64,000 nucleotides of DNA, taken from positions 72,068 through 136,067 of the forward strand of contig WRLY01000003.1 in NCBI GenBank assembly GCA_009776305.1. The letters run 5' to 3'. The stretch's first letter is position 1; each line of letters starts with the position of its first letter. This document shows, in pieces, positions 38,315 to 49,534 of this stretch. The position numbers and the translations under genes were made by a program. The notes under the pieces are model-generated. The model was not told the DNA's origin. It ran no database searches and was given only the letters and a program-made list of their open reading frames with translations. The stretch is from Oscillospiraceae bacterium. GTDB taxonomy: Bacteria; Bacillota; Clostridia; Oscillospirales; Ruminococcaceae.

Positions 38315-39172
38315 CTATCTTATAACTTTGCCTTTTGGCTTTGGCTTGGATTTAATTGGCGTTTCACGTCCGCCTAAGTCCTCGAAAAGCGGCTTTTGGT
38401 CTTCTTCTTCTTTTTTGTGCCGGTTATCCGAATGAACCGAATAATCTGGAATTTCGGGGTTTTTTTCTCCCCTTGATTCATAAAACGGTGTTATTATATA
38501 TTTTTGTATAACAGGATAGGAATTGAAAACCGATATGAAACTTATCCACGCGAACGGAACAAAGGGTAGTAAAAAGAGCGAAAAAGCGCCAAGGATAAAT
38601 ATAAGGAAAATCAGGGAAAGCGATACTAAAAGGGTGATTATATTGCGCTTTATGCCGAGAACCGTTAAAAAGAGCGAATTTTTGATAATCTGACCTAAAC
38701 TAAGCGTCAGCGCCGCTATTTGCGGGTATATGTAAAAGTGCATCATAAAAATGAACACGCCTGCCGCTATAAATACAGCCGACATTACCATATTACTCAC
38801 ATCGGGCTGAACGGCTGTCAGGAAAATATAGTAATTATATGAAAGAATGAACACGGCAATGAAAAACAAGTCGAAAAGCCCGATTATAAGCCCTTGTTTA
38901 AAATTCTTCTTAAATGCGTTCCAAAATTCCTCAAATATAAATATAGGCTGTTCCAGCGTGAATTTTCGCATTACCTGCGTCATGGCAACCGTAGCAGGAC
39001 CTATGGTTACGAGCGGTAGACAAAAGAAGACGTAAAGCATATTTACATAAAAGAATTTCCAGAATTTACGGGCAAAAAGTTCACAAAATTTAAAAAACGG
39101 CTTTTTTTCAGGCTCGCTTTTTGAAACGCCCTTGCCTGACTTGTTAAAATATGAGTGACCGAAAAAAGGCAA
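38315..39172 (-). CDS. YesL/DUF624 family membrane protein
   Basis: CLPLVTIGPA, FWNAFKKNFKQ, IIKNSL. Confidence 0.85.
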   Translation of the reverse strand: MPFFGHSYFNKSGKGVSKSEPEKKPFFKFCELFARKFWKFFYVNMLYVFFCLPLVTIGPATVAMTQVMRKFTLEQPIFIFEEFWNAFKKNFKQGLIIGLFDLFFIAVFILSYNYYIFLTAVQPDVSNMVMSAVFIAAGVFIFMMHFYIYPQIAALTLSLGQIIKNSLFLTVLGIKRNIITLLVSLSLIFLIFILGAFSLFLLPFVPFAWISFISVFNSYPVIQKYIITPFYESRGEKNPEIPDYSVHSDNRHKKEEEDQKPLFEDLGGRETPIKSKPKPKGKVIR

Positions 39173-39302
39173 AAAATCAGCTCCCGTAATTTTAATATAT
39201 TTATAAGATAAAGCACATTAAATATAATTATACTATATTATAAGCTTGTTTGCAAGTAAAATATTTTGTTTTTAAGGTGAAATTATGGTAATATTATATG
39301 AA

Positions 39303-40349
39303 TTACCCCTTAAAAATCAAATACCACAGATAAATTCCATAACAAAAGAGCAGTTTTGCCGCTCCGGATTTTGTAAGGGCTTTGTTTTTAAACATAACCA
39401 TTAATAAAAATACCGAGGAGAGTATCATAACAATGCAGTCAAATATAAATTCCGAGGTGAATTCAAGGGGAACGGAGGAAATCATTCCCGATATTCCGAG
39501 TACAAACACGATATTGAATATATTACTGCCGAGAATATTGCCAATCGCAAGGTCGGCTTTTCCCTTTTTTGCGGCAGCGACGCTCGTAATCAGCTCAGGC
39601 AACGAAGTGCCTACCGCCATAAGTGTAAGTCCTATTATACGGTCTGAAATCCCTATGGCGTGCGCTACATTTTCAGCGCCGTAAATAGCCGCATCGCTTC
39701 CCAAAACTATTGCCGCAAGCCCTAAAACAATTAACAACGTAATTTTAAAAACCGAATCCTTTGGAATCGACGCCGTAGCTTCGCCCGGGGCTGAAACCGG
39801 ACCGGGAGAAATTAAGGCGATTTTTGAATCAGAGGAGATTTTAATAGTATAAACGATATATCCTATAAAAATTAAAAATAAGAACAGCAAAATTAAACTG
39901 TCGAATTTACTGATTCCGCCGCCAATGACTCCGAGTACGGTCAGGACGACAGAGGTTAATATAACGAAAGGAATTTCAAACCTCATAGTATTTTTCTGCG
40001 CGGGAAGGCGCATAAAAAAGCCCGTCATGCCGAGAACAATAAGAATATTGAAAATATTGCTACCAACAACATTCCCGATTGCCATTCCGGCGTTGTTCCG
40101 AACGGCGGCGGTGACAGAAACCGCCGCTTCGGGCGCACTGGTTCCGAAAGCCACAATGGTGAGCCCTATTACAATGAGCGGGATTTTTAGCCTTTCTGCC
40201 GCCTTTACTGCGCCGTCCACAAAAATATCGGCGCCTTTTATTAAAAGATAGAACCCCAAGACCACAAAAACTGCCGAAGCGGCAAGAAATAAAAACCCCT
40301 CGGCTTGTTCCCCGAAAACTTTGTCCACAACATAAGCGGTGATGTCCAT
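39303..40349 (-). CDS. Calcium/sodium antiporter (YrbG-like)
   Basis: Two alpha repeats, GTSAPE...GNVVGSNIFN and GTSLPE...GNILGSNIFN. Confidence 0.93.
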   Translation of the reverse strand: MDITAYVVDKVFGEQAEGFLFLAASAVFVVLGFYLLIKGADIFVDGAVKAAERLKIPLIVIGLTIVAFGTSAPEAAVSVTAAVRNNAGMAIGNVVGSNIFNILIVLGMTGFFMRLPAQKNTMRFEIPFVILTSVVLTVLGVIGGGISKFDSLILLFLFLIFIGYIVYTIKISSDSKIALISPGPVSAPGEATASIPKDSVFKITLLIVLGLAAIVLGSDAAIYGAENVAHAIGISDRIIGLTLMAVGTSLPELITSVAAAKKGKADLAIGNILGSNIFNIVFVLGISGMISSVPLEFTSEFIFDCIVMILSSVFLLMVMFKNKALTKSGAAKLLFCYGIYLWYLIFKG

Positions 40350-40393
40350 TGCTTTTAATTGCTCCTTTATTTTTACTTCAATTGTTACGATTT

Positions 40394-40610
40394 AAAACGC
40401 TAAAGCGTTTGGGTGGGTGATTTCATTATAACATAAAGCGGCTGTAAAATCGAAGATTTTACTCCGGCGCAACCGCGCCGAGTTTTGCGTGTACGCAAAA
40501 CAGCCGTTTCCGTTGAAATAAAATCACTGTTTCGGCTTGCCGAAACCGACCGCTTTGCGGTCACAAAACGCTAAAGCGTTTGGGTGGGTGATTTTATTAT
40601 AACATAAAGC
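40394..40610 (-). mobile_element. 171-bp multi-hairpin element, copy A, plus a partial head-to-tail second unit
   Basis: 8 differences in 171 bp from the reverse complement of 47996-48166; 46-bp direct repeat at 40394-40439 and 40565-40610; begins right after the -10 box of TTGCAT-17-TATAAT. Confidence 0.8.
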
Positions 40611-40638
40611 CGAAAATTATGCAAATTTGTGCCGAATT

Positions 40639-40720
40639 ATTACAAAACGATTACAATTCAGAAACAAAATGATTACAGTTTTCCGAAAAGCATTGACTTT
40701 TAAAGCGGGTGTATTATAAT
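40639..40720 (+). promoter_or_regulatory. Tandem WalR-like boxes and a sigmaA promoter
   Basis: ATTACA-N5-ATTACA (40639-40655), GAAACA-N5-ATTACA (40661-40677), then TTGACT-16-TATAAT (40693-40720). Confidence 0.5.
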
Positions 40721-41087
40721 TAAATAAAGTATTACAAAAAACATAATTTATTATAAATCATTCAATCAGGTAGCATGAAAAGAAACTTTTATAGGCGGGA
40801 AAAGGTTAGGCGTTGTGCAAAACATGCCTGACCTTTTCTTATTTTGCAATCTTTTTGAAAGAAGGTTTTAAGAACCGAAATTCAATAATTAAGAATCTCA
40901 AATGCAAAATTGACCTCTTATTCCCTTTTTATGACATTTCACTCCAAAATGATTGAAAGATAAAATTTATTGTGCTATAATTACCTTTATTTAAATTCGA
41001 CATGTTTTGCTTTTTTAAAAAACAATTTAAGTGCAGGGGAAATATATTCCATGTCCCGTTGATGCCGGGAAGGAGTGGCATATTAAG

Positions 41088-41465
41088 ATGAACGAAGAAT
41101 TTGTCCGAAATCGCATCACGGAATTAAGGTTGCGTAAGGGCGTTTCTGAATATAAAATGAGCTATGATTTAGGGCGAAGCCGCGGGTATATGTATAATAT
41201 TTCTTCCGGAAAGTCACAACCTCCACTGAAAGAATTATTTTTGATAATTGATTATTTCGGCATAACACCGGCTGAATTTTTCGACGGTCAAAATCGTTAT
41301 CCCGATTTGACCAAAAAAATTGTCAGCATAATTAATGAACTGAATGATGAAGATTTTGAGGTCTTGATGAGTGTAATTGGAAGAATTGGCTTATTGAGGG
41401 GGATAGTTAATGATTTATCTCGAAATTGCGAATGTAATCAGGATATGCAAAAAGCTGACTCTTGA
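41088..41465 (+). CDS. XRE-family HTH regulator
   Basis: RNRITELRLRKGVSEYKMSYDLGRSRGYMYNISSGKSQP; start ATG 41088. Confidence 0.9.
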   Translation: MNEEFVRNRITELRLRKGVSEYKMSYDLGRSRGYMYNISSGKSQPPLKELFLIIDYFGITPAEFFDGQNRYPDLTKKIVSIINELNDEDFEVLMSVIGRIGLLRGIVNDLSRNCECNQDMQKADS

Positions 41466-41531
41466 TAAAAATTATAGCCCATTTCAAAAATAATGCTATT
41501 TTTTCAATGATTTATAATTATTGTCCCCAAA

Positions 41532-41583
41532 AACATAATAAAAATGACGCGATTTTAATAAACTGCGTCATTTTTATTATGTT
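41532..41583. terminator. Bidirectional terminator
   Basis: AACATAATAAAAATGACGC ... GCGTCATTTTTATTATGTT between convergent genes. Confidence 0.8.
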
Positions 41584-41590
41584 CTGAAAC

Positions 41591-43645
41591 TTAAAATACC
41601 AATGTCTGCATTATCTCAATATCCTTTACCCCTAACTTTGCAGAAACAATTTTATCGTTCGCAACCGCGTAAAGAAAATCGCCGATGTAAAGCCCGCGTT
41701 GAAAATGCCCGTTGTGAATATTGTAATCGTAGCTCAGGTTGTTGTAATCCGTCCTGATTTCACCCATCAGCGTGAAACCGTCACGCTCGTCATACGAGAA
41801 TACAACGTATGCAAAACCGCCTCCCCATGAGTAATCCGCATAACCGCTATAATCACTGTATTCATAATTATACGGAAAAGCGATTATGTTTTTATCCGGC
41901 GAAACAAGAATAGCTTTATGGTCGCGCTCCGCTATGCTGTAAAACCACGAGTAGCGGTTTTGATTCGGGTTTTCCATATCAATTATATAAACATGCCGCT
42001 CGGAAAGGTCTTCATTGTCGGAAACATCAAACATGGACACTTTAAGACCCGTTCTTCTGCCTGTCTCTTCGCAAGCCTCAACACCTACGCCGAGAAGTGA
42101 GTTATCACTCCATTTGTGCAAATAACGTGAAAAACCCGGAATTTTGAGTTCACTAAGCATTATGGGATTCTCGGGGTCGCTCATGTCGAACGCGAACAGA
42201 GGGTCGGTCAAAAGAAATGTAACTACATAGGCAATTTCTTTTTCAAAGCGCACTGATTGAACCATTTCATCTCCACCTATTCCGCTGATTTCGGAAAGTA
42301 TGTTTAAATTCTTGTCAAGCGCATAAAGCGAGCCGCCCTGTGAGTCCCAACGCCGATTGTTGCCGTTTCCCCACACCTGAGTAACAACGCGGAATATGCC
42401 GTCATATTCGTCCATGTAGAACTGGGTTTCTATACTGCCCCTGACTTTACCTGTTGCGGCGTGTTTAATCTGCCCTTTGTCAACCCCGAACTTATTTATT
42501 ACTGTAAAATTTTCGGAAAAACCATTTATTGTTTGGTTTGCCCATGATGTAATATAAATATTTTCAAAAGAGGAGTATATTATGTTTGAACCGCCCAAAT
42601 TTGCCTCAGCCGATACAAGCATATCGGTTTTGTTTACATTAAGCCCTGATATTACCGTATATTGAATATTATCGAGCCTTTCCGGCAGGACAATACAATC
42701 AGCCCCCAAATAAGCTCTTCTGCCGTTGAGCGTGTAAGCCGGTATATAAACATCGTAATCCTCAACGGCAAAATCCACGCTCAAAAGCGGCGAATAGTCG
42801 GTTATCAGATAAATAATGTTTTCTATCATACGCGAGGAGGAATATCTGCCGTCCTGCGTATATGATGAAACCGGTTGCTTGAAATTGCCATTGGTATCAT
42901 AAATCTCAACAACGGTTTCATATTTCCACCGGTATCCCCAATGGTGATAATCCCGGTTAGCGTCCGAAATATTAGCTTTGTCATTGACCCGCTTGTTCCA
43001 AATAACAATTAATTTTTTATTATAGAGTAGCAATTCAACGGGGGTGGCGTCTTCTTTTTTAAGGGTTGCAAGCTTAGACATTTTTCCGTTATCGGTTTTT
43101 ACCACGCTTACGTTATTAAGGTGAAGCGAGGCGAAATATATATTTTTGCCGTCGGTCTTGACTATATCGCCCTCTTGTATGCCCTCAATCTGATTGTTTG
43201 TATCCGAAAAAGTTTTAGAATTCTCCGCAGAGTTCGCACCTGTTGCAAAATCGGCTTCAGGAGATTCAGCGGCGACGGCTCGTGGGGCGTTAGTTTCGGA
43301 AACGGCAAAGTCGCCGAATACTTCAAATTCATAATTATAATCTCTGTAATATAAATAATCCTGCTCTGCCCTTTCTTTTATTAATTCATATATTTTACTG
43401 TAATCGCTGTTGAGCGGTTTGGAGTCTTCGGTTTTAACCGCTTTACCGCCGTTATTACCTAAGAACTTGAACCTTTCAAATAAGTTTTGCGTCTTTTGGG
43501 TGCTTAGTAACGAGTTTGTTTCGTCATAATGGCTTTTATGCGAAAGTTCGCCGCTGTTTTCAATGTAACCCCAACCGGAATCACATGACGCAGAAAAAAG
43601 TATGAGTATAGCTAAAGATAGTGTAAAAATTACGCGCTTTTTCAT
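41591..43645 (-). CDS. Lipoprotein with beta-propeller domain
   Basis: Lipobox FSASC, TNNQIEGIQEGDIVKTDG, QFYMDEY, YVVTF..TDPLF, ELKIPGFSRYLH. Confidence 0.9.
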   Translation of the reverse strand: MKKRVIFTLSLAILILFSASCDSGWGYIENSGELSHKSHYDETNSLLSTQKTQNLFERFKFLGNNGGKAVKTEDSKPLNSDYSKIYELIKERAEQDYLYYRDYNYEFEVFGDFAVSETNAPRAVAAESPEADFATGANSAENSKTFSDTNNQIEGIQEGDIVKTDGKNIYFASLHLNNVSVVKTDNGKMSKLATLKKEDATPVELLLYNKKLIVIWNKRVNDKANISDANRDYHHWGYRWKYETVVEIYDTNGNFKQPVSSYTQDGRYSSSRMIENIIYLITDYSPLLSVDFAVEDYDVYIPAYTLNGRRAYLGADCIVLPERLDNIQYTVISGLNVNKTDMLVSAEANLGGSNIIYSSFENIYITSWANQTINGFSENFTVINKFGVDKGQIKHAATGKVRGSIETQFYMDEYDGIFRVVTQVWGNGNNRRWDSQGGSLYALDKNLNILSEISGIGGDEMVQSVRFEKEIAYVVTFLLTDPLFAFDMSDPENPIMLSELKIPGFSRYLHKWSDNSLLGVGVEACEETGRRTGLKVSMFDVSDNEDLSERHVYIIDMENPNQNRYSWFYSIAERDHKAILVSPDKNIIAFPYNYEYSDYSGYADYSWGGGFAYVVFSYDERDGFTLMGEIRTDYNNLSYDYNIHNGHFQRGLYIGDFLYAVANDKIVSAKLGVKDIEIMQTLVF

Positions 43646-43699
43646 TGTCGGATACCTCCTTAAACTCATATAAACAAGTGAAATTTACCTTTATATCTA

Positions 43700-43729
43700 T
43701 AACACAACGCAAACCTATAAAAGGTTGCA
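43700..43729 (-). promoter_or_regulatory. Putative ECF-sigma promoter
   Basis: TGCAACCT-N11-GCGT-T-GTGTTA; matches 24451-24480 at 21/30 positions with identical spacing. Confidence 0.6.
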
Positions 43730-43870
43730 CTTTAGAATTGAAATATTTAATATAAATACCCTGCCGTGTTGCGAAAACCGAGCAACATAATTAAAAACCC
43801 GCCCTACCTTAATAGTAGAGCAGATTTTCCGTTATTACACTCGTTTTATCAAAGACAAACCGTAAACATA

Positions 43871-43905
43871 AATATCCTCACAACTTTTTGGGTTGTGAGG
43901 ATATT
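43871..43905 (-). terminator. Hairpin downstream of the tRNA
   Basis: AATATCCTCACAAC ... GTTGTGAGGATATT, 14-bp stem. Confidence 0.75.
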
Positions 43906-43925
43906 GCCTGCGGCGGCTCGCCGCC

Positions 43926-43998
43926 TGACCCACCCGCGACTCGAACGCGGGACACCCTGCTTAAAAGGCAGGTGCTCTGCCGGCTGAGCTAGTGGGTC
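43926..43998 (-). tRNA. tRNA-Lys (anticodon UUU), CCA not encoded
   Basis: Cloverleaf GACCCACTAGCTCAGCCGGCAGAGCACCTGCCTTTTAAGCAGGGTGTCCCGCGTTCGAGTCGCGGGTGGGTCA. Confidence 0.97.
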
Positions 43999-44039
43999 AT
44001 AAAAATTCAATGCTTTTTTGTTATAGCCATAACAAAGTA

Positions 44040-44068
44040 ATTATATCAGATGTCGCAACGATTGTCAA
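44040..44068 (-). promoter_or_regulatory. Consensus sigmaA promoter of tRNA-Lys
   Basis: TTGACA-17-TATAAT with extended TG. Confidence 0.9.
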
Positions 44069-44209
44069 CCGCTTTTTGCAAAAAAAATCAAAAATCGCCT
44101 GAATGTCCGAACAATGTCTGTTTTAAACAAAACACTTGACTTTTGGCGTAATATTTAGTACAATTTAAATAATAGAATGCAATATTTCGGAAACCCGCTT
44201 GGAGAGCTT

Positions 44210-45430
44210 ATGCTAAAATTTTACACAGCGTTCACAAGGGAAATTGACCATCCCGAAGCGGCAGTACAGGAAATTGTCCGTCAGCTTGAACCTGCCCGAA
44301 ACGCCCTTAAAAATACTGTCGGGATTGTCCATTTTTGCCTTGACTTCGCCACAAACGAGACCTGGAAATTGCTTATTGCAGCCCTGCCATTTGAACTTGT
44401 GGGCTGTTTATCCGCCTGTATATCAATAAACGGCGAATATAGCGACTGCGCGGTATCGGTCACGATGATTACAAGCGATGATGTTTGCTTTTCCGTCAGG
44501 GCGATTGACAACATACATACTAAAACCGCCGAAGAAACTACGGGCGAGTTTTTGAAGCTGTTTAATGAATTCTCCCACGGGAAAAAAGAAAAACCCGCGA
44601 TGGTTTTGCAGTTTATGTCGTCTTTGCCGAATTTTTCGAGCAACGATTTATACGACGCCATCAGAACAGTTGACGACCCGTGCCTGATTTTCGGAATGTG
44701 CGCGTTAAACATAGGCGGCAAACCCGGCACGAATTTAGTACTGGCAGACGGCAAAATTTCTTCCTCCATGTGCGCTATGGTTGCTTTTTACGGCGACATA
44801 AATATAAAATACCACATAGATATGTCTATTATATTTGACGAAACCTACGGGGAAGAAGCTAAAATCACCGAAGCGGAAGGCGCTGTTTTGAAAAGCGTAA
44901 ACGATATGCCCGCTTTGGAGTATTTTAAGCAAAAAGGTCTGATTTCCTCCGGCAATGAGGAAACCGGAACAGGAATAGCGGCAGTTCCGGCGATTATGAC
45001 CTACAAAAACGGCACAAAAGTCGCCTGTTCTTTCCTTGGAGTGGTCGAAGGTACTCAGCATCTTTTCGCGGCGAGGTCTTTGGAAGACGGTGCGAAAATA
45101 GTCTTTTCTTACCTTGACGGTGAAAAGACCCTCCGCCGCGCCGAAGTTTTAATGAGGGAAATATGCGAAGACGGGCAGGTTGACTACGCTATGATTTTCA
45201 GTAATGTGGCGAGGGCGTGGTCTTGCTCCAATATTATGGCAGAGTCACAGAAAATTGCCGGTTTCGCGAAAACCTACAAGCTACTTAAGGGCACGCCCCT
45301 GAGATACAGTTTAGCTTATGCAGGCGGCGAGCTTGGTCCCGTGCGTGATGTGGAAGGTAATTTTATAAACATGCCGCATAATTATTCGATTATCGCCTGT
45401 TCTTTTAAAAGTTCTTTAATTTCCGAATAA
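44210..45430 (+). CDS. FIST-domain sensory protein
   Basis: FTREID, LPFELVGC, ITEAEGAVLKSVNDMPALEYF, FSNVAR, AYAGGELGP...HNYSIIAC. Confidence 0.82.
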   Translation: MLKFYTAFTREIDHPEAAVQEIVRQLEPARNALKNTVGIVHFCLDFATNETWKLLIAALPFELVGCLSACISINGEYSDCAVSVTMITSDDVCFSVRAIDNIHTKTAEETTGEFLKLFNEFSHGKKEKPAMVLQFMSSLPNFSSNDLYDAIRTVDDPCLIFGMCALNIGGKPGTNLVLADGKISSSMCAMVAFYGDINIKYHIDMSIIFDETYGEEAKITEAEGAVLKSVNDMPALEYFKQKGLISSGNEETGTGIAAVPAIMTYKNGTKVACSFLGVVEGTQHLFAARSLEDGAKIVFSYLDGEKTLRRAEVLMREICEDGQVDYAMIFSNVARAWSCSNIMAESQKIAGFAKTYKLLKGTPLRYSLAYAGGELGPVRDVEGNFINMPHNYSIIACSFKSSLISE

Positions 45431-45520
45431 GTCTGAGAATCTGTATTCAATACCTAAAATATGGGCGTTTAGCGGTATTGAATACAAGTTCTAATCCTAA
45501 TTTTAAGGAGTCTCCGCCCA

Positions 45521-47932
45521 ATGGAACAAACCGAGTTAAAGAATACGCTTGCGGAGGAAACAGCCGCTCTTAAAGAAGAAAACCGCAAGTTAAAGTCCGA
45601 ACTGCGTACCATGACACGGGAGCTTAATCAGCGCAAGCGGTCTATTTCCGTAATGGAAAGCAACTTCAACGTCAAGATGAATATGTTCCGCTCTCTTGCC
45701 GCCGAGAACGAAAAACGCCGCAGTTTCTTGAAACACATGATGAAAAACAGCGAGGATTTTCTGATTTTATTAGACAATCAGCGCAATATAGCCTATTGCT
45801 CGGATATGTTCCTGCGAAAAATTAATGTGGAATATTTCAGTGAGGTTGAGGGGAAAAACATATTCAGGGTGTATGAAACTTTCGCGAAAGGCGATTTTCT
45901 CGAAACCATAAAATTCGGATTTATCGAGGCTGTCGAAAGAAATTCCACCTGCCGCCAGGACGTCGTAGCCGACATCTGCGACAACGGTGAATACAGAGCC
46001 TACCGCATTACAAATACCCCCATGATAGACGATGGATTAAGCGGATTTATCATCAACTGGACTGATACCACCGACATCATGACCGCCAGAAATGAAGCCG
46101 AAAAAGCCAATAAAGGCAAAAGTAACTTCCTTGCCATTATGTCTCATGAAATCCGCACACCCTTGAATGCCATTATCGGCATAGCGCAAATAGGACTTCA
46201 AAGAGGCGACCTGCCCAAAAGACACGCCGAGGCTCTTGACAGAATCTACAGCTCGGGTAACAGCCTTTTGGGTATTGTCAACGATATTCTTGATTTGTCT
46301 AAAATTGAAACCGGAAAATTAGAGCTTAATCCCTCCGAGTACGATATACCCAGTCTTATTAACGACGCGGTTCAGGTCAATATCGTAAGAATCGGCGTGA
46401 AAGACATTAATTTTATGGTTGAAGCCGACAAAAACCTGCCGGCAAAACTTTACGGCGATGAATTGCGCTTGAAGCAAATTTTGAACAACCTGCTTTCCAA
46501 CGCGATTAAATACACCGACAGCGGCTTTGTTAAGCTTTCGGTAACCCATACCGTATTTGAACCGGAAGTCCATAGTGGATATAAAAGAGATATAATTGAT
46601 TTTGATGACGACAATGAAAACGATGTGGTTCTACGGTTCAGCGTAAGTGATTCGGGTTACGGTTTAAAACAGGAAGACAAAGAAAAGCTGTTTTCAGATT
46701 ACCTGCGCTTTGTTTCCATGGCAAACCGTTCCACTGAAGGAGTAGGTCTCGGCTTGTCTATAACCAAAAATCTTGTGGAAATGATGGACGGCAAAATTGA
46801 AGTAAAAAGCGAATACGGCGAAGGCAGTACTTTTACGGTTGAAGTGACGCAAAAAAGCGTACCCTGCCCTGCGATAGGTTCGGAAACCTCGGAACAGCTC
46901 AAAAATTTCACTTTCGGTCTCGGCATCAGTAATCTGCGGAAAAACCCCGAAATTACCCGTAACATAATGCCCTACGGCAGGGTTCTTGTAGTTGACGACG
47001 CTGAGACTAATTTATATGTCGCGAGAGGCTTATTAGCACCTTATAAACTTACAGTGAGAACAGCGGTGAGCGGTTTTTCGGCAATCGACCTGATAAAATC
47101 GGGCAGGAAATACGATATAATTTTCATGGACCACATGATGCCGCAAATGGACGGTATTGAAACAACAAAAAAGCTCCGCTCTCTCGGATACAGAGGAACT
47201 ATAATCGCGCTGACCGCAAACGCGCTTGCGGGCAACGCCGAACTATTCGCTAAAAACGGGTTTGATGATTTTGTGCCTAAGCCAATTGATACCCAACACC
47301 TTAATACTGTTTTGGATAAATATATTAAGGACAAATATCCTGAAGAAGCTAAAAAATACGCCGACCAAACGCAAACCGACCCGCAAAACAATATACTTCA
47401 AATAAGCCCCAAATTGCTTGAAGTCTTCCGTGTTGACGCACAAAACGCCGTAACCACTCTCAGGCAATCCATAAAGAACAACGACTTAAAAATATTCACA
47501 ACCACCGTCCATGCAATGAAGTCTGCATTAGCCAATATAGGAGAGGAAGAACTGTCCGAAGTTGCGCTCGGGCTTGAAAAAGCGGGACTTAGCGATGACA
47601 GAAGCTTTATTTCAAAAAACGCAGAAAATTTTATTGAAATGTTAGAAAGCTTTGCAGACGCTTTAACCCAAACCGATTCCGAAACCGATGACAATGACGG
47701 CGGCGAGGAGCTTTTCGGAAGTGCCGAATACTTAAACGAGCAACTGAAAATTATAGCCGCCGCCTGCGGAGATTACGACGACTCTACGGCTTACACCGCA
47801 CTCAATCTGCTGAAAGAAAAGCACTGGAAGAAAAAAATCGCCGACGGACTGGAAGAAATCCGCAATATGCTGTTTTTACACAGCGATTTTGAGGAAGCGG
47901 AAAAAAGAGCTAAAGAAATAATGGATAGTTGA
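45521..47932 (+). CDS. Hybrid histidine kinase (PAS-HisKA-HATPase-REC-Hpt-like)
   Basis: MSHEIRTPLN, NLLSNAIKYT, GVGLGL, VVDD/FMDHMMP/KP receiver, VHAMKSA; no TM segment. Confidence 0.95.
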   Translation: MEQTELKNTLAEETAALKEENRKLKSELRTMTRELNQRKRSISVMESNFNVKMNMFRSLAAENEKRRSFLKHMMKNSEDFLILLDNQRNIAYCSDMFLRKINVEYFSEVEGKNIFRVYETFAKGDFLETIKFGFIEAVERNSTCRQDVVADICDNGEYRAYRITNTPMIDDGLSGFIINWTDTTDIMTARNEAEKANKGKSNFLAIMSHEIRTPLNAIIGIAQIGLQRGDLPKRHAEALDRIYSSGNSLLGIVNDILDLSKIETGKLELNPSEYDIPSLINDAVQVNIVRIGVKDINFMVEADKNLPAKLYGDELRLKQILNNLLSNAIKYTDSGFVKLSVTHTVFEPEVHSGYKRDIIDFDDDNENDVVLRFSVSDSGYGLKQEDKEKLFSDYLRFVSMANRSTEGVGLGLSITKNLVEMMDGKIEVKSEYGEGSTFTVEVTQKSVPCPAIGSETSEQLKNFTFGLGISNLRKNPEITRNIMPYGRVLVVDDAETNLYVARGLLAPYKLTVRTAVSGFSAIDLIKSGRKYDIIFMDHMMPQMDGIETTKKLRSLGYRGTIIALTANALAGNAELFAKNGFDDFVPKPIDTQHLNTVLDKYIKDKYPEEAKKYADQTQTDPQNNILQISPKLLEVFRVDAQNAVTTLRQSIKNNDLKIFTTTVHAMKSALANIGEEELSEVALGLEKAGLSDDRSFISKNAENFIEMLESFADALTQTDSETDDNDGGEELFGSAEYLNEQLKIIAAACGDYDDSTAYTALNLLKEKHWKKKIADGLEEIRNMLFLHSDFEEAEKRAKEIMDS

Positions 47933-47982
47933 TGATGAATTGAGAAAACGGCAGAATTCAAACCCGTTGACGAAACAGCGGG

Positions 47983-48166
47983 TTTATGTTATAATAAAAT
48001 CACCCACCCAAACGCTTTAGCGTTTGACGACCGCAAAGCGGTCGGTTTCGGTAAGCCGAAACGGTGATTTTATTTCAACGGAAACGGCTGTTTTGCGTAC
48101 ACGCAAAACCCGACGCGGTTGCGCCGGAGTAAAATCTTTGATTTTACAGCCGCTTTATGTTATAAT
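47983..48166 (+). mobile_element. 171-bp multi-hairpin element, copy B, flanked by the 13-bp direct repeat TTTATGTTATAAT
   Basis: Direct repeats at 47983-47995 and 48154-48166; upstream promoter TTGACG-17-TATAAT; element-encoded TTGATT-17-TATAAT at its end. Confidence 0.8.
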
Positions 48167-48208
48167 AATAAAGACATAAAATTTAAAACAAAAAAGGAGA
48201 ATAATAAC

Positions 48209-49534
48209 ATGGCTGAAATAAGAGCTTTCAGAGGTCTGCGTTACGACGAAAAGGCAGGAGACATCGGCAGTCTTTGCTGTCCGCCCTACGACATCATCTC
48301 AAAAGAGGAGCGGTTGCGCTACCTTGAAAAAAATCCTTATAACATAATAAGACTTGAACTGCCGGAAGCCCTTTCCGATAGCCCTAATCTTGACGTTTAT
48401 GCCACTGCGGGGCAATTTTTACGCGACTGGTTAGGCAGAGGCATACTTAAAAACGAACCTAACGAATGTATTTATATCTATGAAATGGAATTTGAGGTAT
48501 ACGGGCAAAAGAAAAGCGTCACCGGCTTTATTTCGCTTATTAAGTTAGAGGAATTCTCTAAAGGAATAGTACTCCCCCATGAAGAAACCCTCTCTAAAGC
48601 CAAAACCGACCGTTTCAACCTTATGAAAGCCACCAACTGCAATTTCAGTCAAATTTACTCGCTTTATAACGACCAAAGCGGGGAAATTGCCGTGCTTTTG
48701 AACGAGGCAAAAAAAGAAAGTCCAACCTCAAGTTTCACTGACGGCGACGGCGTTACCCATAAGCTTTGGGTTATAGATACGGCAAGCCCCGCTTCATTCA
48801 TTGGAAAGCTCACAGCTCTGATGGCTCCGAAAAAGGTCTATATTGCCGACGGTCATCACCGCTACGAAACCGCACTGAATTACAGAAACTCACACTCCGC
48901 ACAGAGCGTAGGCTCCAATGAGAGAGGAACGGCAGACTATGTGCCGATGATGTTGGTAAACATGGAAAACGATGGCTTGGTCGTATTCCCGACACACAGA
49001 ATCGTTCGCGATTTAGGCGGATATGAACAAAATGAAATTCTGAACAAATGTGAGGAATTTTTTGAAATCACGCCGAATCTCAACCGCGAAAATGCCCAAA
49101 ACACTCTCAACCAAGCCTATGCAAAAGGCGAAAAGGCTTTCGCGTTGTATTCAGGCGGTAATAATTTCGTTTGTTTAAAATTAAAATGCGGGGACGGGGG
49201 AGCTGCCTCGATTATGAATGAATTTATGCCGGGTGCAAGCGAGGCATTACGGGGCTTGGACGTAAGTGTCCTGCATACGTTAGTGCTTGAACGAATTTTC
49301 GGCATTGACAAAGAGAATATGGCAAACCAGGTCAACCTGACTTACACCAGAAACACTGATGAAGCTATTTCCGCAGTAGACGATAAACGCGCCAACTGCT
49401 GTTTCCTGCTCAACCCCACCCGAGTTGATGAAATAAGCGGCGTGGCGGCGGCTGGAGAGAAGATGCCACAAAAGTCAACTTATTTCTACCCCAAGTTGAC
49501 TACAGGGCTTGTAATGAATCAGATTGTAAAATAA
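48209..49534 (+). CDS. DUF1015 domain protein
   Basis: CPPYDII, VLPHEETL, YIADGHHRYETA, PTHR, KMPQKSTYFYPKL. Start is ATG 48209 after AGGAG; the upstream extension in the ORF track is repeat element. Confidence 0.92.
   Translation: MAEIRAFRGLRYDEKAGDIGSLCCPPYDIISKEERLRYLEKNPYNIIRLELPEALSDSPNLDVYATAGQFLRDWLGRGILKNEPNECIYIYEMEFEVYGQKKSVTGFISLIKLEEFSKGIVLPHEETLSKAKTDRFNLMKATNCNFSQIYSLYNDQSGEIAVLLNEAKKESPTSSFTDGDGVTHKLWVIDTASPASFIGKLTALMAPKKVYIADGHHRYETALNYRNSHSAQSVGSNERGTADYVPMMLVNMENDGLVVFPTHRIVRDLGGYEQNEILNKCEEFFEITPNLNRENAQNTLNQAYAKGEKAFALYSGGNNFVCLKLKCGDGGAASIMNEFMPGASEALRGLDVSVLHTLVLERIFGIDKENMANQVNLTYTRNTDEAISAVDDKRANCCFLLNPTRVDEISGVAAAGEKMPQKSTYFYPKLTTGLVMNQIVK

Follow-up and report, generated by a model that had tools for sequence, protein, structure and literature searches.

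A 171-bp structured repeat that apparently docks on, and restores, the -10 box of promoters in Oscillospiraceae

We describe a 171-bp repeat that occurs twice in a 64-kb stretch of DNA (the window) from a metagenome-assembled genome (MAG) of an Oscillospiraceae bacterium. Apparently, it is a structured, non-autonomous intergenic repeat with an undescribed target, namely the -10 box of promoters, and it is kin to bcr1, to REP, and to the miniature transposable elements with inverted repeats (MITEs) that carry promoters. The bcr1 or group A repeats of Bacillus cereus (Okstad 2004; Klevan 2007; Kristoffersen 2011) are non-coding repeats of about 155 bp from Firmicutes, with no known transposase. 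They are flanked by direct repeats of TTTAT, are patchily distributed between close strains, and are transcribed; compensatory changes preserve a cruciform-like fold, and their mobility has been ascribed to a "site-specific recombination-like mechanism" (PMC3184786, PMC6542083). The promoter-bearing MITEs include Correia/CREE of Neisseria, MITEAba12, BrickBuilt, QMITE1, and SonMITE_1 (PMC10969869), as well as REP2 of Neisseria (PMC3184786). Putative mobile promoters (PMPs; Matus-Garcia, Nijveen and van Passel 2012) are highly similar sequences upstream of unrelated genes, some of them found across taxa, and their mechanism is unknown (PMC3575422).

Like bcr1, the 171-bp unit is non-coding, has no known transposase, lies between short AT-rich direct repeats, is patchily distributed, and has compensated stems. 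However, bcr1 is limited to the B. cereus group, its 5-bp flank is not a promoter box, and it forms two stem-loops instead of two four-way junctions; in the bcr1 papers, which we compared by description only, it is not reported to dock on or to regenerate -10 hexamers. Like the promoter-bearing MITEs, the unit is small, non-autonomous, and mostly upstream of genes, and the sigma70-like promoter elements of these MITEs can drive the neighboring gene; but MITEs have terminal inverted repeats, short target duplications (TA for Correia), and generic landing sites (PMC10969869), whereas our unit has no inverted ends and replaces an existing -10 box in register. The REP, BIME, and REPIN sequences (RAYT) and the IS200/IS605 family with its PATE derivatives are also similar in that they have compensated hairpins, lack inverted ends and target duplications, and occur in clusters or arrays. 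Furthermore, IS200/IS605 elements insert in one direction, 3' of a short specific sequence, and this is the junction geometry of the 171-bp unit, whose stems abut both of its ends. REPs differ in being single hairpins of ~35 bp that lie mostly at the 3' ends of genes, while the target of our unit is at least 9 nt and is a promoter element; and the Y1 HUH transposase (PF01797) that defines the REP and IS200/IS605 systems was sought but not found in any of the four genomes that we introduce below. PMPs are a statistical class, based on positions -150 to -50, without any anatomy, and most of them exclude the -10 box by design (PMC3575422), while the unit, the boundaries, the target, and the empty sites of our element are all defined. 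In the papers that we searched, we found no report of docking on the -10 hexamer, and of its restoration, for bcr1, MITEs, REP/IS200, or PMPs.

The MAG that contains the window (G000) is 1.54 Mb in 7 contigs and is 71% complete. We compared it to G053 (Lab288P3bin172, WRCY01, which we also handled as G041), a sister MAG of 2.2 Mb that is 94% complete; to G015 (the MAG Pal332_bin19), which like G053 is from a termite-gut Oscillospiraceae; and to G157, a GC-rich genome from another genus of the same family that is 100% complete. We also used a covariance model (CM) of the first domain of the element (R1). The two copies in the window and their surroundings are as follows.

40596-40624, minus strand: host promoter of the Na/Ca-exchanger gene and docking site of copy A (-35 TTGCAT at 40619-40624, 17-nt spacer, TATAAT at 40596-40601, TGTTATAAT at 40596-40604; from the sequence and a promoter scan)
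40425-40595, minus strand: copy A, the full 171-nt unit (82.4 bits against R1)
40520-40595, minus strand: domain 1 of copy A, a four-way junction, followed by a T-run and a linker to 40507
40439-40506, minus strand: domain 2 of copy A, a four-way junction
40425-40437, minus strand: element-borne box of copy A, TTTATGTTATAAT, with TCGATT at the -35 position
40394-40424, minus strand: start of another unit (31 nt, with closing-stem arm and hairpin 1), behind the second box of copy A (98% identity over 43 nt)
39303-40349, minus strand: gene for a 348-aa antiporter of the Na_Ca_ex family, downstream of copy A (from the list of open reading frames; PF01699 is recorded for an identical protein)
47967-47995, plus strand: host promoter of the DUF1015 gene and docking site of copy B (TTGACG-17-TATAAT with TG; score 11/12)
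47996-48166, plus strand: copy B, the full 171-nt unit (86.6 bits against R1)
47996-48071, plus strand: domain 1 of copy B, followed by a T-run and a linker to 48084
48085-48152, plus strand: domain 2 of copy B
48154-48166, plus strand: element-borne box of copy B, TTTATGTTATAAT, with TTGATT 17 nt upstream of its TATAAT
48209-49534, plus strand: gene for a 441-aa DUF1015 protein (PF06245), downstream of copy B

The two copies differ at 8 of 171 positions (31-33, 57, 68, 115, 118, and 144 of the unit), which are mostly in loops or junctions. In each copy, the first base lies directly after the TATAAT of the host promoter, and the final bases are TTTATGTTATAAT. Both of these host promoters have TG at -15/-14, and the sequence upstream of the host box of copy A is unique to that site. 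Stops break all six reading frames of the unit, so it has no open frame, and a repeat search with copy B and its flanks found no terminal inverted repeats: the one such inverted pair is subterminal, with TAAAATCA at the start of the unit and TGATTTTA at a distance of 20 nt from its end, and no long direct repeat occurs apart from the box with some neighboring bases. A preliminary description of the window had reported these features (two sense copies that begin after the -10 of TTGCAT-17-TATAAT or TTGACG-17-TATAAT and end in a second box; 8 differences; no inverted ends and no open frame; and a -35 of its own, TTGATT, in copy B but TCGATT in copy A), and we reproduced all of them from the sequence. 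Both loci are also present, base-for-base identical, in an independent metagenome assembly from JGI, so the copies are not an artefact of assembly. One contig of that assembly, which is of the same population, stops exactly inside copy A (L122:1-176, a contig end from JGI 3300002469), so this repeat fragments assemblies at promoters.

To ask how general the placement is, we considered the host-adjacent sites, which are the places where host DNA borders on the element or, in an array, on the first of its elements (n=38, from four sources). At all 38 sites, the element starts directly 3' of a -10 hexamer and is in the sense orientation relative to the downstream gene. The hexamer is preceded by TGn at 35 of the 38 sites, as compared to 137 of the 799 intergenic TATAAT in G000 (binomial p ~8e-24), and 31 of these 35 have TGT (38% in the background; p ~8e-10). 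At least 4 of the 6 bases of the -35 hexamer TTGACA are present at 16-18 nt for 27 of the 38 sites, but for only ~20% of all 2709 TATAAT in G000. (These background values were computed on G000, whereas most of the 38 sites are from G053; the effect sizes are large.) The abutment of -10 boxes that had been proposed from copies A and B thus extends to every site. Each site has its own -35 hexamer and spacer, so these parts are the host's. The genes that lie downstream have unrelated functions: they include the antiporter, DUF1015, pyruvate carboxylase, glyA, a trigger-factor-like gene, flagellar genes, and dCMP deaminase.

In contrast to the host's -35 region, the right-hand box is always of the genome's own element type, which is ...GCCG(C/A)TTTATGTTATAAT in G000 and ...GATTGAAATTATGTTATAAT in G053. 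(The box of the element begins with TTTAT, as in the flank of bcr1, in G000 but with ATTAT in G053, and the left flanks vary.) The right box stays TGTTATAAT even if the left box is TGCTATAAT, TGGTATAAT, or AAATATAAT (TGC-, TGG-, or AAA-TATAAT). Since the right box is independent of the left box, it is part of the element and is not a target duplication of 7-9 bp; at most, the invariant hexamer could be duplicated at insertion. The junction is located at, or inside, the TATAAT hexamer.

There is also some similarity beyond the box. For copy B, the host spacer and box match the end of the element at 21 of 23 positions, and this likeness is already present at the corresponding empty site in G053. 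In G053, the match to the element's end extends further upstream for occupied boxes than for TGTTATAAT boxes that are unoccupied (p ~0.01-0.04, with small samples). In G000, the upstream match is 7/8 for copy A and 6/8 for copy B, and 6/8 is reached by only 2 of 81 unoccupied boxes. We take this similarity as a hint that homology may help to guide insertion. The terminal box, (T/A)TTATGTTATAAT (40425-40437 and 48154-48166; in G053, for example, L024:1611-1630), resembles the XerD-binding arm of dif, which is TTATGTTAAAT in E. coli, and apart from Xer-like tyrosine recombinases there are very few recombinases in G000 and G053.

If the element is mobile, then related genomes should have promoters with a single box at the same sites, and they do. 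In G053, the DUF1015 promoter (CCGTTGACGAATCAGCGGTTTTATGTTATGAT) leads straight into the leader and the ribosome-binding site, with a single TTTATGTTATGAT; in G000, the same -35 and spacer are followed by the 171-nt unit and then by a comparable leader. This site is also empty in G021 and in G015. More broadly, we identified DUF1015 orthologues in 37 of 60 genomes of the genus, and the element is absent from all 8 of the upstream regions that were read. The gene for pyruvate carboxylase (pyc) has a copy upstream in G000, and its orthologues in G053 and G048 do not. Conversely, G053 has the element, and G000 lacks it, at the promoters of four genes: an ACT-domain gene, glyA, a phoH-like gene, and a motB-like gene. 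At glyA, the host leaders of the two genomes can be aligned starting with the base that follows the (second) box. The single-box empty sites that the preliminary description expected in relatives were therefore found in both directions.

Three sites are filled in both G000 and G053: the promoters of the MFTET... gene, the MRVLSQ... gene, and dCMP deaminase. The copies at these shared sites are the most diverged. In G000, they have 65% identity or only short matched pieces, as compared to 95-100% elsewhere, and in G053 they have 86-88% identity, as compared to 93-94% at the sites that are filled only in G053. It had been suggested that if relatives carry the element at orthologous positions, then it would be a conserved leader. 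Most of the sites that we compared are empty in one of the two species, and the three that are filled in both have the most decayed copies. In our reading, the insertions at the shared sites are old, and re-docking on the same box, followed by deletion, has turned them over. Re-docking is supported by the remnants of unit starts behind second boxes and by the tandem arrays that we describe below.

The element is common in two genomes and is otherwise rare. G000 contains 8 copies or remnants, of which 3 are near-identical full units (copies A and B, and one on contig C5 before the pyruvate-carboxylase-like gene pyc) and 5 are diverged or internally deleted. In G053, there are 32 matches to domain 1 by BLAST, and also 32 by CM; with two internally deleted forms, at least 34 placements were read, and among these there are pairs of copies at 97-98% identity. 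G015 has 1 copy, of domain 1 only. Across 108 genomes of the genus, the CM gave confident matches only in G000, G053, and G015, and it did not find the element in the other 105, which include the genome that is closest by the identity of its DUF1015 protein (G021, 73%). An exact-pattern scan for hairpin 3 and the T-run, with one genome per species, matched only G053 and G015 besides G000, and the same kind of scan with the linker pattern had no match. One further copy is on a metagenome contig (Ga0099364_10000236, or L023, a single piece of 5.6 kb). This copy (L023:4440-4580) is a deletion derivative in which domain 1 is joined to the end of domain 2 at a GATTTTA repeat. Its domain 1 is 95% identical to a copy in G000, and the remainder of the contig has no nucleotide similarity to G000, which suggests, from this one 5.6-kb piece, that the element may have been transferred between co-resident bacteria.

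The preliminary description did not recognize the family, and we also found no described family that it belongs to. BLAST against phage and plasmid collections and a pattern scan of IMG/VR did not give any match to the element, E-value scans with Rfam 15 (of window positions 39000-49500 and four related loci) found nothing at the element, and we did not find a description of it in the papers that we searched.

Both domains of the element are predicted to fold, and the fold is preserved between subfamilies. Domain 1 is a four-way junction of ~76 nt, with a 9-bp closing stem that has A/T ends and three hairpins of 6-8 bp, and behind it are a T-run and a conserved linker, ATTTCAAC. Domain 2 is another junction with three hairpins, whose closing stem continues into the extended -10 box that the element carries. 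For copy B, the minimum-energy fold has exactly this pair of four-way junctions, as had been predicted (-71.9 kcal/mol; z = -7.2 with 200 shuffles), and the opposite strand folds equally well (z = -7.4). Across 31 copies of domain 1, 88.9% of the pair cells are standard pairs, as compared to 33-49% if the partners are slid by 1-3 columns, and 11 pairs have changed on both sides. For example, between subfamilies in G053, the closing stem is compensated (AAAATCAC/GTGATTTT versus AAAAATGC/GCATTTTT), as is hairpin 1 (CCAAACG/CGTTTGG versus GCAAGCG/CGCTTGC), and hairpin 2 has at least 4 compensated versions. In domain 2 of G053 (24 copies), 96.8% of the cells are paired and 5 pairs have changed on both sides, including an A-T to G-C change in the closing stem, directly upstream of the box. 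Domain 2 of G000 has another sequence with the same plan, and one hairpin is common to both (CGGCGCG...GCGCCG).

This covariation is concentrated between subfamilies and was not seen among recent copies. An RNA that functions as the sense strand should tolerate G·T mismatches in its stems but not A·C mismatches. We found 27 of each in domain 1, and 14 G·T versus 12 A·C in domain 2. Because the two types are equally common and both strands fold alike, nothing indicates that the sense RNA is under selection, and we dropped a functional sense-strand RNA as our main explanation. For the same reason, we do not favor the mobile structured RNA that the preliminary description gave as an alternative to a mobile element. 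We infer that the hairpins act in propagation, where the DNA itself would be folded, and do not serve an RNA function at each locus.

The element is best conserved in the stretch that comprises hairpin 3, the closing stem's 3' arm, and TTTTATTTC / TTTTATTTCAAC. This region was flagged as terminator-like by a scan: hairpin 3 is followed by GGTGATTTTA, and the closing stem, which encloses a three-way branch, is followed by TTTTATTT. Copies with only domain 1 lie between the sole promoter and the ribosome-binding site or gene, so any termination at domain 1 must be partial.

The element also occurs in arrays and in pieces. Remnants of unit starts lie behind the second box of copy A in G000 and at L034, L036, and L047 in G053; the piece at 40394-40424 either is left over from an older copy or marks a head-to-tail junction. 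At L036, the order is host promoter, unit, box, unit, box, remnant, and at L040 it is box, module C, box, unit, box, module C, box. Module C is a second family, of 78 bp, that starts with AACCYCACCC (AACCYCACCCGTT), has nested hairpins, and ends with GGTTATGTTATAAT. It has the same start and end as the main unit and is otherwise unrelated in sequence. There are at least 10 copies of module C in the loci from G053 that we examined, each between two -10 boxes and often arrayed with the main unit; examples are listed here.

L040:1189-1440, minus strand: module C in G053
L043:1376-1700: module C in G053
L026:1409-1500: module C in G053

Older copies decay by deletion, and the deletion derivatives all break at short direct repeats.

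We did not identify an enzyme that could move the element. The preliminary description had suggested that longer copies might encode a transposase, a recombinase, or a reverse transcriptase (RT), but there are none among the BLAST and CM matches in G000 and G053. Y1_Tnp (PF01797) has no match in G000, G053, G015, or G157, while control genomes did match. Pfam searches of the whole genomes of G000 and G053 found no IS110, TnpB (PF07282), RVT_1, or DDE_Tnp_1, and the only GIY-YIG proteins in these two genomes are UvrC-sized, with no small ones. There is one match to rve, in G053, and there are 3 matches to tyrosine recombinases in each of the two genomes, which are not diagnostic. Three known types of element or gene were also considered and set aside. 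A bridge-RNA or IS110-type element does not fit, as there is no IS110 gene and the fold lacks large internal loops; domain 1 is not a tRNA-like gene, as no tRNA model matches at the element; and the core of the element is unlike GTTRRRY, the core of an integron attC site.

We propose that the 171-bp unit is, probably, a non-autonomous mobile DNA element that is built of modules. The dispersed copies, the docking at 38 of 38 sites, and the empty sites all support the mobile element at extended -10 boxes that was proposed earlier. In our model, the element would integrate in one direction at the 3' edge of a sigmaA-type -10 hexamer, with a preference for TGTTATAAT, or would cross over inside the box; the association with this target is what we observe at the 38 sites. 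The host's -35, spacer, and -10 would then fire into the element, and the element's terminal box would take the former place of the host's -10, before an untouched host leader; this is the geometry of the filled sites, and the promoter activity is predicted. The preliminary description's proposals that the element is transcribed from the host promoter and that expression of the gene is preserved are, likewise, inferred from anatomy only. Folded DNA, probably single-stranded, may be needed for copying or integration, which would keep the hairpins and would be consistent with covariation between subfamilies and no strand bias. Re-docking on the same boxes, together with slippage at GATTTTA and ATAAT, would give rise to the arrays, remnants, and shortened copies that we see. 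As for the mover, we would guess either at a recombinase, site-specific or single-strand-specific, that escaped binning, or at the host's own functions for recombination and replication, guided by homology between the box and the end of the element. The final layout (host box, element, element box, host leader) would fit three mechanisms alike: insertion of a single strand on the 3' side of a specific sequence, as for IS200/IS605; conservative site-specific recombination that involves the box of a circular element and that of the host; or homology-guided copying. More specifically, a recombination system that reads structure might use the sigmaA -10 box as its attachment site, perhaps while it is melted in the open promoter complex, with the two DNA cloverleaves as modules for single-strand recognition. 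We mention this as a possibility that is rather doubtful.

Several results weigh against a mobile element. Three of the 9 comparable sites are occupied in both species, and at each of these, the copies have their own genome's type of domain 2, so either turnover by re-insertion or gene conversion between copies is needed. Our Pfam searches of G000 and G053 did not give a candidate transposase (serine recombinases were not searched), and there is no autonomous or long coding copy among the BLAST and CM matches in these genomes. The absence of an enzyme is weak evidence, because both MAGs are incomplete and because DNA that is multi-copy or extrachromosomal is often missing from MAGs. Movement was not observed, and since the one other assembly from this population is identical, it offers no strain-level polymorphism. 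Finally, the perfect sense orientation at real promoters could in part reflect selection on which insertions survived.

We also considered whether the element might spread passively, without a dedicated enzyme, by microhomology template switching or short-homology recombination between near-identical -10 boxes, with the box-element-box donor being copied and its hairpins stalling replication. The element is indeed bounded on both sides by the same box of 9-13 nt; the similarity of occupied boxes to the element's end reaches further upstream than for unoccupied boxes, and for copy B (21/23) it existed before the insertion, as judged from the empty site in G053; deletion derivatives break at short direct repeats; and we found no transposase. 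However, RecA-type recombination normally needs more than 9-15 nt of identity, and at least 34 copies in a genome of 2.2 Mb, with pairs that are 97-98% identical, would be a high rate for illegitimate events. The covariation of stems between subfamilies also suggests a selected step that reads structure, and module C, which is unrelated and has only its terminal sequences in common with the unit, is what we would expect if a protein recognizes the ends. We think that passive spread is unlikely. An ordinary MITE, whose DDE-type transposase would duplicate TATAAT or TTATAAT at AT-rich palindromic sites, with survivorship explaining the link to promoters, is very improbable. Direct repeats of the box do flank the element, and TTATAA is palindromic, as are many DDE targets, but the element has no terminal inverted repeats, the right box is TGTTATAAT despite a left box of TGCTATAAT, TGGTATAAT, or AAATATAAT (which excludes a duplication of 7-9 bp), none of the 38 sites falls on the ~660 intergenic TATAAT that lack TGn, and none is antisense. 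Also, G000 and G053 have no DDE_Tnp_1, and rve has just the one match in G053.

Alternatively, the copies could be a family of 5' leaders or small RNAs that the host maintains for their function (an attenuator or terminator with a second promoter, or a 5' stabilizer), with selection for a common regulatory input accounting for their spread. Every copy is in a 5' untranslated region and is in the sense orientation; the best-conserved segment (hairpin 3 with the closing stem's 3' arm and TTTTATTTC) is the one that was flagged as terminator-like; domain 1 must be transcribed where it is the only domain and lies between a single promoter and the ribosome-binding site; and three sites are occupied in both species. 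A functional leader does not explain why the orthologous promoters are empty in the sister species, why the downstream genes are functionally unrelated, why G·T and A·C mismatches are equally common in stems that fold equally well on both strands, or why older copies decay by deletion. The element is also missing from 105 of the 108 genomes of the genus and has no match in Rfam. We consider this explanation to be quite improbable, and we prefer a mobile DNA element.

Domain 1 is one branch of a broader group of cloverleaf repeats. A family-level CM search (one genome for each of 150 genera) gave weak matches in G157 only, where there are at least 44 matches to a 79-nt cloverleaf that consists of GGGCGCAGCCC, three hairpins, and GGGCTGCGCCC.

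L125-L136, for example L125:1501-1586: cloverleaf loci in G157

The third hairpin of these cloverleaves is GTTTCGGC-GAAG-CCGAAAC, whose stem is identical to hairpin 3 of domain 1, and the plan of a four-way junction is common to both. Unlike the 171-nt unit, the cloverleaves of G157 are not beside -10 boxes and have neither a second domain nor a terminal promoter box. Their closing stem is rich in GC and lacks a T-run behind it, while the closing stem of domain 1 has A/T ends and a T-run. Docking at promoters, the second domain, and the terminal box are special to the clade of G000 and G053. We found no Y1 transposase in G157, which is complete, and we note that it has a small GIY-YIG frame (131 aa, C36:29254-29469) that is ~1 kb from a tyrosine recombinase (C36:30310-30876).

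A few other features came up in our scans. In the window, there is a tRNA gene at 43926-43998 on the minus strand (Rfam, 64 bits). At 41535-41617, also on the minus strand and just downstream of a 692-aa open reading frame, there is a weak, sub-gathering match to the Staphylococcus small RNA (sRNA) model sau-5971 (33 versus 90 bits), which is probably only a terminator-like hairpin. On contig C1 of G000, there are two more small families of promoter plus leader, near 272407, 272766, 345046 (minus strand), and 533479 (minus strand), and near 398202, 470483 (minus strand), and 470816 (minus strand). They are near-identical and lie before short genes; their sequences are TTGACATTTTTCCACATTTATGCTATAAT... 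and TTGACA...TTTATGTTATAAT AAATATAGAAAAAGGCGA..., and they may be paralogous leaders or other reused promoters.

The element appears to pick the core -10 of existing strong promoters and to restore an equivalent box, which would limit the harm from an insertion inside a promoter. Known promoter-carrying repeats bring a promoter wherever they land, and the 171-bp unit differs in its choice of where to land. In practice, such repeats break MAG assemblies at promoters and can mislead the prediction of promoters or sRNAs. If our proposal is confirmed, it would add a new class of target for mobile DNA in bacteria, and it would be an anatomically defined case of the "mobile promoter" phenomenon, which has so far been only statistical. 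It would also be a natural case of regulatory rewiring, as the host's -35 and operator are parted from the gene by a terminator-like structure and a promoter that is independent of the -35. If a structure-reading system is in fact at work, this would be the first mobile element to target and restore a core promoter element, which would convert a host promoter into a cassette of promoter, structured insert, and promoter. Finally, confirmation would point to an integration activity in the Oscillospiraceae that reads four-way-junction DNA.

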